IMG/VR virus record: IMGVR_UViG_2778261540_000003 | Length of the DNA stretch: 64,000 bases | Direction: 5' to 3' (one strand) | Source of the DNA: a virus | Taxonomy: Duplodnaviria; Heunggongvirae; Uroviricota; Caudoviricetes | Shown here: one piece after another, positions 47,458-48,793 of the stretch | Layout of the letters: the number at the start of each line of letters is the position of its first letter | How positions within the stretch are numbered: position 1 is the first letter of the stretch | Notes under the pieces: model-generated | Databases searched by the model: none | Told to the model about the DNA's origin: nothing | Seen by the model: the letters and a program-made list of their open reading frames with translations, nothing else | Made by a program: the position numbers and the translations under genes

Positions 47458-47493
47458 AATGCTGGTGGAGTGCGCCCACCAGCATTTTTTTCG
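47458..47493 (+). terminator. Rho-independent terminator
   Basis: AATGCTGGTGG-AGTGCGC-CCACCAGCATT hairpin followed by seven Ts. Confidence 0.6.
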
Positions 47494-47510: not shown

Positions 47511-48017
47511 TTGAGTATTTTCAATAAACACGCACACCAGGAACGTCCGTATATCGTCATAGTTGATATTGATGGAACAATATCAGAGGCAACTGAAGAC
47601 AGACTGCATTTGCTTCCGCCACCAGGTAAAGGTGCATTAACAAAGGACTGGAACGAGTTTAATCTCGCCTGTGACACCGATACTCCCATCACTCCAGTTA
47701 TTGATATGGTGCGCCAGTTATTTAACGTTTACACGGTCTGGTTTGTAACCGGGCGCTGTGAGATCGCAAGGGATAAAACACTAGCCTGGCTGCGGAAGTA
47801 CGTAACAAACGGGGCTGAGCCTTTGCTATCTATGCGTCCTGCCACCGATGACAGAAATGACGGCCCAGCAAAGATTGATCTCCTTAAGAAAATTGGTCTA
47901 AGTAAAATCGCGTTCGCGCTGGAAGATAAGATTGAAGTGGCGCGTGTTTTCAGGAGGCACGGCGTGCTTACGTTAATGGTCAGGGAGTATGAAAACGCGC
48001 TTCTCCATCAACAATGA
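47511..48017 (+). CDS. HAD-superfamily phosphatase-like protein
   Basis: N-terminal VIVDIDGTI (DxDGT) motif typical of HAD hydrolases. Confidence 0.5.
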   Translation: MSIFNKHAHQERPYIVIVDIDGTISEATEDRLHLLPPPGKGALTKDWNEFNLACDTDTPITPVIDMVRQLFNVYTVWFVTGRCEIARDKTLAWLRKYVTNGAEPLLSMRPATDDRNDGPAKIDLLKKIGLSKIAFALEDKIEVARVFRRHGVLTLMVREYENALLHQQ

Positions 48018-48033
48018 TTGCTCTAATAAATAT
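48017..48033 (+). promoter_or_regulatory. C1-operator-like site
   Basis: ATTGCTCTAATAAATAT, 16/17 match, overlapping the preceding stop codon. Confidence 0.7.
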
Positions 48034-48211
48034 TGATTTTTAAAACAGAGAAAGTGAAAATAAAAACATGCCGCAAGGCGCGGCATGTATCCAATCAATC
48101 ACAGGAGCTGAAAATATGAACACGGCATTCAAAATCATTATGGCCGCGATCTATTTCTGGCTGTTCTCTATCACTTTTGGCGGCATCGTCGCACATGGGT
48201 AAGGGGGATGC

Positions 48212-48793
48212 ATGAAAGGCGAAGTGAAAGAGCGCGGCATGATTTTTAACGATGAGATGGTCCGGGCAATTCTTGGCGGGAATAAAACACAGACTCGCAG
48301 GATTGTTGAAGAAAAATTCTATGGACGGGCAGTGGCCGCAGAGTTGCTTGCCAAGCATTGTCCATATGGTCAACCGGGCGATCGTATTTGGGTTCGCGAA
48401 ACCTACCGGGTACATGGCAAAGCGACGGACGTCGCAACGCTGGTTTATCGCGCAAGCGTGCGTAACTCCTGGACAGAACAAACGCACCGGGTTCCGGTCG
48501 AGGTTTGTAATAAACCAGTATCAGAAAAGTGGACGCCATCAATTCACATGCCGCGCTGGGCATCGCGCATTCTTCTGGAAATTACCAACGTGCGCGTTGA
48601 GCGGTTGAACGATATCAGCGAATGCGATGCAAGGGCTGAGGGCGCACCAACAGAATCGACCCTCATTGGCGATAAGCATTACCCAGGTTTCCGTAGCCTA
48701 TGGAAATCAATTTATGGCGAAGATAGTTGGAACGCTAATCCTTGGGTGTGGGTAATAGAGTTTGAGCGTATTCAGGGGGCAACCAGTGAGTGA
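48212..48793 (+). CDS. Hypothetical protein
   Basis: 193-aa ORF, first in an operator-controlled operon. Confidence 0.4.
   Translation: MKGEVKERGMIFNDEMVRAILGGNKTQTRRIVEEKFYGRAVAAELLAKHCPYGQPGDRIWVRETYRVHGKATDVATLVYRASVRNSWTEQTHRVPVEVCNKPVSEKWTPSIHMPRWASRILLEITNVRVERLNDISECDARAEGAPTESTLIGDKHYPGFRSLWKSIYGEDSWNANPWVWVIEFERIQGATSE

Follow-up and report, generated by a model that had tools for sequence, protein, structure and literature searches.

A conserved stem-loop and a probable small membrane-protein gene at the head of the C1-repressed operon of P1-like phage-plasmids

We analysed a 64,000-nucleotide (nt) stretch of viral DNA (IMG/VR record IMGVR_UViG_2778261540_000003, hereafter the window), focusing on the short region between a C1 repressor operator and the first annotated gene behind it. 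The 1.5 kilobases around this locus share 99.4–99.7% identity with phages P7 and SJ46 and, over the aligned parts, about 97% with phage P1; judged by its sequence, the window is a P1/P7-like phage-plasmid. Taken as a whole, the locus is probably best explained as the start of an early operon under C1 repression, known as the pmgT operon in P1 and the hea operon in P7, that carries a real small membrane-protein gene with a stem-loop in its 5' untranslated region (5' UTR). A first-pass annotation, made from the window alone, had pointed out a hairpin and a hydrophobic 28-codon open reading frame (ORF) behind the operator, and had suggested a small membrane peptide or a leader. The features on which the argument rests are as follows.

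48017–48033, plus strand: C1 repressor operator, ATTGCTCTAATAAATAT, an exact consensus match that overlaps the pap stop codon; it corresponds to Op88 (= OpmgT) of P1 and Op(hea) of P7
48066–48088, plus strand: conserved 5'-UTR stem-loop of the operon mRNA with 9 base pairs (bp); 5' arm ACATGCCGC (48066–48074), loop AAGGC (48075–48079), 3' arm GCGGCATGT (48080–48088)
48091–48108, plus strand: conserved 5'-UTR core, CCAATCAATCACAGGAGC, which holds the Shine-Dalgarno (SD) sequence GGAG (48104–48107)
48116–48202, plus strand: small-protein gene, the first cistron; 28 codons and TAA, MNTAFKIIMAAIYFWLFSITFGGIVAHG, with a single predicted hydrophobic helix

Seen against the rest of the window, hairpin and ORF do not stand out. 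The window contains about 11 separate perfect hairpins of at least 9 bp (23 register hits, versus 2.1 in Markov simulations) and 10 ATG-initiated ORFs of 25–35 codons that are preceded by an SD sequence. We judge both features to be real because they are conserved in diverged relatives, where the ORF keeps its frame and its hydrophobic helix and the hairpin is rebuilt from different arm sequences at the same place.

Conservation in diverged relatives

The sample of close relatives comprised 80 IMG/VR loci, 868 PLSDB plasmids and 885 complete E. coli genomes, and across it the region is 93–100% identical, so conservation within this P1 type says little. That both features arose by chance and are conserved only through the close kinship of the elements would fit this uniformity, as it would the abundance of similar hairpins and ORFs in the window. 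However, in more distant relatives the heavily diverged leader and ORF DNA still keeps the hairpin by compensatory changes and the ORF in frame with three-base periodicity. The explanation by chance is already contradicted by these comparative data, and we give it almost no credence.

Scans of IMG/VR via the Pap protein returned only relatives with at least 93% identical Pap, and a search of the GTDB species representatives via Pap returned two loci, both of the P1 type. A tblastn search of Pap against phages identified Cronobacter phage JK004, whose Pap is 72.5% identical; tblastn with the JK004 Pap did not find JK004-like plasmids in PLSDB. Further lineages came from protein searches seeded with the JK004 small ORF, from an exhaustive hidden Markov model (HMM) search of 1.84 billion cluster representatives and from a DNA pattern of the SD core, and back-translated scans with the small-protein alignment yielded nothing in IMG/VR and one JK004-like metagenome contig. 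The diverged lineages stem from Cronobacter, Salmonella, Enterobacter hormaechei and Citrobacter braakii, and all lie in P1-like synteny (ppp, pmgQ, pmgR, pmgS, with or without pap). Three of them (L173, L174 and L175, positions 2835–3000) lack pap entirely, with operator, hairpin and small ORF following pmgS directly, which makes the module independent of pap.

The elements have the same order in every lineage: operator, TTGATT-like hexamer, xAxAAT hexamer, hairpin, the core CAATCA[CT][AC]GGAGC and ATG. The length of the small ORF, in amino acids (aa), differs between lineages.

P1 type: 28 aa
L173/L177: 48 aa
L179/L180/L182: 46 aa
JK004/L176: 53 aa
L170–L175: 53 aa

The operator itself is already known. 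The 17-bp asymmetric site fits the pattern ATTGCTCTAATAAATTT and matches the consensus ATTGCTCTAATAAATWT without mismatch at exactly the position given in the first-pass annotation, and the window holds 10 matches to the C1-operator consensus versus 0.04 expected by chance. The homologous site is annotated as a C1 binding site (protein_bind) in the records of both P7 and P1, the latter describing Op88 as a monovalent C1-controlled operator, and the site is kept as ATTG[CT]TCTAATAAATAT in every diverged lineage. On this evidence, we identify it as the known C1 operator of P1/P7. The gene order is shtB, pap, Op(hea), upf86.8 in P7 and pmgS, pap, OpmgT (formerly Op88), pmgT in P1. In operator sequence, position at the pap stop and downstream operon, the locus matches Op88/OpmgT of P1, with its predicted promoters P1pmgT and P2pmgT, and Op(hea) of P7 (NC_005856 and AF503408). 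It differs from these two records in that they place the first gene at pmgT or upf86.8; between operator and first gene, the retrieved P1 and P7 records show neither a hairpin nor a small ORF. Relative to that annotation, the hairpin and the small gene are new and the operator is known. In SJ46, by contrast, a 44-aa 'membrane protein' is recorded in the interval from operator to first gene, and in many GenBank and RefSeq records the small gene appears as a hypothetical or membrane protein, mostly with the start that gives 44 aa.

The small gene and its protein

The start ATG occupies one aligned position in five diverged lineages and is preceded by the common SD core, in the arrangement GGAGC(C)-N-ATG. 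Conservation of the frame in relatives was the check that the first-pass annotation had set for its own proposal, and the ORF it described holds with small coordinate corrections (ATG at 48116, TAA at 48200–48202), as does its SD-like AGGAG (48103–48107, with GGAG 8 nt before the ATG). This is the sole frame that stays open throughout, every non-P1 lineage having stops in the other frames. A gap-free alignment of the five protein lineages covers their first 24 residues, in which M1, K6, A11 and W15 are invariant (in four lineages within the alignment, and in L179, which was compared separately) and the remainder is hydrophobic. Over these 24 codons, 19, 8 and 20 of the 24 columns vary at the first, second and third codon positions, respectively, and the summed pairwise differences are 151, 54 and 145. 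As second positions set hydrophobicity, this means that hydrophobicity is held while first and third positions drift. The ratio of nonsynonymous to synonymous substitution rates (dN/dS) is 0.22–0.39 among the 53-aa lineages. Within the P1 type, the ORF shows 9 synonymous and 11 nonsynonymous distinct changes, and no indel, frameshift or nonsense change in 163 locus fetches. An open frame and substitutions of the coding type are thus found together, and these patterns argue that the small ORF is a real membrane-protein gene with a conserved and selectively constrained frame.

The predicted protein is a single hydrophobic helix. The Kyte-Doolittle mean over residues 7–24 is 1.8–2.1 in all six lineages compared, and AlphaFold models a helix over residues 2–23 of a 53-aa relative (predicted local distance difference test, pLDDT, of 84–89 in this block). 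Both agree with a hydrophobic helix of about 18–22 residues, and the peptide would probably insert into the inner membrane. The longer forms carry a polar, net-acidic tail, which in the 53-aa forms is itself conserved (KPDANM...SYDCDQQ). AcrZ, KdpF and MgtS are small single-pass membrane proteins of enterobacteria. The family described here is like them in its 28–53 residues, its one hydrophobic helix and its short polar tail; unlike them, it is unrelated in sequence to the families of Pfam, NCBIfam and PHROGs and is confined to P1-like elements.

This confinement is indicated by an HMM built from the 53-aa forms and the 28-aa P1 peptide, which retrieves both types and only 8 of the 1.84 billion cluster representatives, all belonging to this family. 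The exhaustive search thereby links the P1 type and the longer forms into what appears to be one small-protein family. Searches of Pfam, NCBIfam and PHROGs with the 28- or 44-aa peptide gave no match beyond a PHROG hit at E = 0.16, and the peptide sequence was not found in the literature searched.

The 44-aa form of the databases depends on an upstream extension of the frame.

48068–48115, plus strand: in-frame extension of the small ORF, with start ATG at 48068, that gives the 44-aa database form; probably not translated

The ATG at 48068 lies inside the hairpin stem, has no SD sequence and is at the predicted transcription start or at most one base from it. The extension has no counterpart in the other lineages. 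Together, this makes the ATG at 48116 the likely true start.

The leader suggested by the first-pass annotation is right in so far as the ORF opens the operon as its first cistron, in tight coupling with the gene behind it. In the strictest form of this idea, the ORF would be a regulatory upstream ORF only: its translation would matter for coupling or for shielding a long leader from Rho, and the peptide would be functionless. Every lineage has the stop next to the following start or overlapping it, as would be expected of such a device, and the low amino acid identity between lineages (21% to the first sequence of the alignment), the variable C-terminal length (28, 46, 48 or 53 aa) and the excess of nonsynonymous over synonymous changes in the P1 type (11 versus 9) point the same way. 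However, a pure coupling device needs no hydrophobicity, whereas here constraint on second codon positions is strong, the hydrophobic helix keeps its register, with K6, A11 and W15 invariant, dN/dS is below 0.4 and the 53-aa tail is itself conserved. The ORF also remains intact where its downstream partner has been replaced by a convergent hsdR gene. Selection on hydrophobicity argues that the peptide itself matters, which supports the small membrane peptide of the first-pass annotation over a leader alone, and we regard a functionless peptide as unlikely.

The hairpin as an RNA element of the leader

RNAfold recovers the hairpin of the window on both strands. Its stem has the 9 bp given in the first-pass annotation; the split proposed there (AAGG-CGCGGCATGT) moves one loop base into the arm, and the true loop is AAGGC, of 5 nt. 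Hairpins with different arm sequences are found at the same place and at the same distance from the operator in JK004, L170–L176 and L179. Each lineage independently folds a hairpin at the equivalent place, and in every lineage the stem starts 2–7 nt after the xAxAAT hexamer. The arms are as follows.

P1 type: 5' ACATGCCGC, 3' GCGGCATGT
JK004: 5' GGCCGC, 3' GCGGCC
L176: 5' GGTCGC, 3' GCGGCC
L173: 5' AAGGCCAC, 3' GTGGCCTT
L179: 5' AGGCCAC, 3' GTGGCCT
L170: 5' TTGGCAGTCAC, 3' GTGACTGCCAA
L171: 5' TTGGCGGTCGC, 3' GTGACCGCCGA

Compensatory changes were found on an alignment of 13 distinct hairpins that was anchored by hand on the stems, so that its pair counts lean towards structure. With 9 aligned pairs, 91.5% of cells hold standard pairs, versus 72% in column shuffles and 22–44% when the partners are slid, and 6 of the 9 stem pairs have changed on both sides. 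Across the 9-pair and 11-pair versions of the alignment, about 91% of cells are paired, 6–8 pairs show double changes and the slid controls give 22–45%. The changes between L170 and L171 include a double change from A-U to G-C.

The substitutions also indicate which strand folds. By our count, seven stem substitutions lead to G·U pairs on the plus strand (three in the P1 type, two in L171 and one each in L174 and L176), versus none that pairs on the minus strand only, which by our own calculation has a two-sided probability of about 0.016 under strand symmetry. The three stem substitutions of the P1 type are all C to T on the plus strand, giving G·U in the plus-strand RNA and A·C in the minus-strand RNA, and the P1-type indel in the hairpin region (+GG) falls in the loop, never in the stem. 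Together with the lack of a plus-strand U-tract described below, this pattern identifies the conserved element as a plus-strand RNA stem-loop in the operon 5' UTR and not a terminator or a palindromic protein-binding site.

On the plus strand, the stem is not followed by a U-tract in any lineage (in the window, ATCCAATC comes next), so the hairpin is not a terminator in this direction, and the terminator scan made no plus-strand call at the hairpin in the window, JK004, L173 or L170. On the minus strand of the window it did call a terminator-like site with 10 pairs and a T-run, because TTTTTATTTT follows the hairpin there. This resemblance, missed in the first-pass annotation, is not conserved in relatives: the T-run is restricted to the P1 lineage, in which it is complementary to the predicted -10 element and discriminator GAAAATAAAAA, and JK004, L173 and L170 gave no terminator call at the hairpin, the T-run being absent from the other lineages.

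The minus-strand call bears on two further explanations. In the first, the hairpin would mark a transcription or processing boundary, either as a minus-strand or bidirectional terminator or as a 3'-protecting stem of the pap/pmgS mRNA. GC-rich stems can protect RNA 3' ends, and the hairpin lies 49 nt after the pap stop. Yet the missing plus-strand U-tract and the restriction of the minus-strand T-run to the P1 lineage speak against a terminator, and no minus-strand gene is annotated in the fetched flanks, up to about 2.5–3 kilobases downstream, that could need one. Moreover, lineages without pap have the hairpin at an unchanged distance from operator and promoter, which ties it to the downstream unit and not to pap. 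We therefore consider a boundary role very unlikely.

In the second, the locus would be a type I toxin-antitoxin system, in which the membrane toxin is countered by an antisense RNA that starts within the ORF, covers its SD sequence and start and ends at the minus-strand hairpin and T-run (48088 to 48066, then TTTTTATTTT). The peptide is short and hydrophobic like Hok, and in both size and hydrophobicity it resembles Ibs, ShoB and TisB; in the P1 lineage alone, a minus-strand hairpin with a T-run, called as terminator-like, lies upstream of the SD sequence. Sub-threshold minus-strand Rfam hits at 48060–48147, to GcvB (20.3 bits versus a gathering score of 42, E = 0.023) and isrK, could be added, although they are probably driven by the hairpin and T-run. 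Unlike the systems of Hok, Ibs, ShoB and TisB, however, the locus has no conserved antisense promoter or terminator and no family match. No promoter-like site was found on the minus strand of the P1 type even at 8 of 12 consensus positions and none is common to the lineages, so that no antisense RNA gene was found in this region of the window or conserved among the lineages. The T-run is limited to the P1 lineage, with no terminator call in other lineages, the stem wobbles favour the plus strand, no Rfam hit reaches its gathering score here and neither Pfam nor NCBIfam gives a match. The ORF, finally, is coupled within a repressor-controlled operon and does not stand alone. As a conserved antisense promoter is missing, we consider a type I system extremely improbable.

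The position of the stem-loop relative to the promoter suggests a role for it at the mRNA 5' end.

48033–48061, plus strand: predicted sigma-70 promoter (P1pmgT of the P1 record), with -35 TTGATT (48033–48038), a 17-nt spacer, -10 GAAAAT (48056–48061) and a predicted +1 near 48068

The P1 record predicts two sigma-70 promoters that overlap the operator. Every lineage has a TTGATT-like hexamer overlapping the operator end, followed 16–17 nt on by an xAxAAT hexamer (GAAAAT, AATAAT, CAGAAT, AAGAAT or CAAAAT), and the spacer sequences differ. With these conserved hexamers, the predicted +1 falls 0–1 nt before the stem or 1–3 nt inside it; the predicted promoter and the conserved hexamer spacing thus suggest, within a few nucleotides, where transcription would start. 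RppH and RNase E need a single-stranded mRNA 5' end, and 5'-terminal stem-loops, such as the hairpin in the ompA 5' UTR, stabilise E. coli mRNAs. The stem-loop is like ompA-type stabilisers in that it is GC-rich, lacks a U-tract, shows covariation and, with the predicted start, leaves at most about 1 unpaired 5' nt. It is unlike them in that its transcription start is a predicted one, and alternative upstream promoters would put it inside the leader. By this analogy, its most likely role would be to shield the mRNA 5' end from 5'-end-dependent decay.

Between the stem-loop and the start codon, the core CAATCA[CT][AC]GGAGC is common to all lineages and the flanking leader has diverged; one P1-type variant lacks one CAAT unit (-4 nt in the CAAT repeat). 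In an RNAalifold prediction, the SD region (CCGGA in relatives, 48101–48107 in the window) pairs with UCUGG at about 48156–48162, in codons 14–15, which could sequester the SD sequence. We left this structure aside, as it has 5 pairs and no covariation and spans the codon of the invariant Trp15, which makes it inseparable from protein constraint. Regulation of the leader by the C4 antisense RNA was rejected as well, the predicted duplex of -32.3 kcal/mol being no better than 208 of 300 shuffles.

The cargo junction and the operon as a whole

Downstream of the small gene, the elements diverge.

48203–48214, plus strand: junction with the next cistron, GGGGGATGC followed by the ATG at 48212; the SD sequence of the next gene (GGGGGA) directly follows the small-ORF stop
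48212–48793, plus strand: second cistron, Upf86.8 of P7, which has its N-terminus in common with PmgT of P1 and is an 'ASCH domain-containing protein' in RefSeq; the variable cargo starts here

Stop and start are arranged as TAA and 9 nt in the window, as ATGA in JK004 and L170–L175, as TGATG in L173/L177 and as TAA and 4 nt in L179. Given this close spacing, the small ORF and the downstream genes are probably coupled in translation. These genes differ between elements, and homology often ends within a few bases of the small-ORF stop. In JK004, L171 and L173, the coupled next gene is not the ASCH-like protein of P1/P7: it encodes about 104 aa with Pfam hits to winged-helix (helix-turn-helix) domains (L087 3245–3556, L171 3159–3470 and L173 3147–3461). 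Only the L171 protein scores above the curated cut-off (MarR_2, 28.5 bits versus 27); the hits of L173 and JK004 are below it, that of JK004 being marginal (E = 0.041). Rare variants fuse the small gene to downstream ORFs, such as P0013, where it is joined to a DUF551 protein.

In about 18 P1-like IMG/VR locus fetches, with contigs partly fetched twice, a convergent type I hsdR replaces the gene that starts MKGEVKE... (e.g., L021, L088, L015, L054 and L099), and the small ORF is intact in all of them. P1-type indels occur just after the stop, never inside the ORF; three loci have recombined inside the ORF, after codon 19. IncF plasmids carry an 84-nt remnant of the 3' part of the ORF adjoining hsdR, its 5' part cut off by IS1 (L004 3001–3160; L005). 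Among 5426 complete E. coli genomes, 885 have any match and 564 (about 10%) match at least 80% of the query. The difference means that up to about 320 genomes hold partial copies only, such as the remnant of the IncF type. The junctions compared thus mark the small-ORF stop as a recurrent recombination boundary, the fixed left edge of a hypervariable cargo region.

Several points weigh against reading the locus as a small membrane-protein gene behind a 5'-terminal stem-loop, in addition to the hand-anchored hairpin alignment. The 28-aa P1 form is without the polar tail of the other lineages, and the P1 type and the 53-aa types are only about 21–25% identical in amino acid sequence, so what is conserved is mainly hydrophobicity. 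CRISPR interference and earlier mutant data class neighbouring genes of the pmgT operon as non-essential for lytic growth. The predicted promoter matches the consensus at only 8 of 12 positions, below the threshold of the promoter scan, which did not call it. L170 and L173 have alternative promoter-like sites that span the operator or precede it; if these were used, the hairpin would lie about 40 nt inside the leader and not at its 5' end. Neither a mapped Op88 transcription start nor P1 ribosome profiling or proteomics data were found in the searchable literature.

If the locus is nevertheless what we propose, a small membrane-protein gene behind a stem-loop, its expression could proceed as follows. 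Once C1 leaves Op88, transcription would begin from the weak sigma-70 promoter that overlaps the operator end. The transcript would start at the conserved stem-loop or a few nucleotides from it, and the stem-loop would most likely protect the mRNA 5' end. From the conserved SD sequence, the hydrophobic protein, a single helix of 28 residues, would be translated and may insert into the inner membrane. With the stop 9 nt before the next ATG, translation would probably be coupled to the downstream cargo genes. We infer the exact transcription start, the mRNA-stabilising role, the membrane insertion and the translational coupling from these arrangements.

Other parts of the window agree with its assignment or stand apart from the locus. 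An Rfam match to the sok antitoxin (RF01794, 114.9 bits, 16608–16782, plus strand) points to a type I toxin-antitoxin system of the hok/sok type elsewhere in the element. The immI region, with the C4 antisense RNA and its a1/b1 targets at 12946–12998 and 13066–13151 (plus strand), and three tRNA genes at 32699–32771, 32777–32849 and 34657–34729 (plus strand) are as expected for P1/P7. Between shtB/pmgS and pap, a strong intrinsic-terminator-like site (47458–47486, plus strand) has an 11-bp stem, AATGCTGGTGG...CCACCAGCATT, followed by TTTTT, which suggests that transcription of pap may not be a simple continuation of that of pmgR-pmgS.

Both elements, a small membrane protein and a 5' stem-loop, are of ordinary kinds, and together they are a solid gain in annotation rather than a surprise or a new kind of system. 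More speculatively, and with little confidence, the peptide may be an early effector specific to the P1 family, silenced by C1 in the lysogen, made first on induction or infection and active in the inner membrane, with the covarying stem-loop and the invariant core CAATCAC[AC]GGAGC as dedicated post-transcriptional control of the whole cargo operon. If so, it could act, for example, in host takeover, in superinfection exclusion or by modulating a membrane-bound defence or transport protein. Few phages are as widely used or as well annotated as P1, and about 10% of complete E. coli genomes carry a P1-like phage-plasmid. With the correction made here, the Op88-controlled operon gains a first cistron and a 5'-UTR structure, both conserved, and the fixed left edge of its cargo region is useful for studying or engineering cargo exchange in phage-plasmids.

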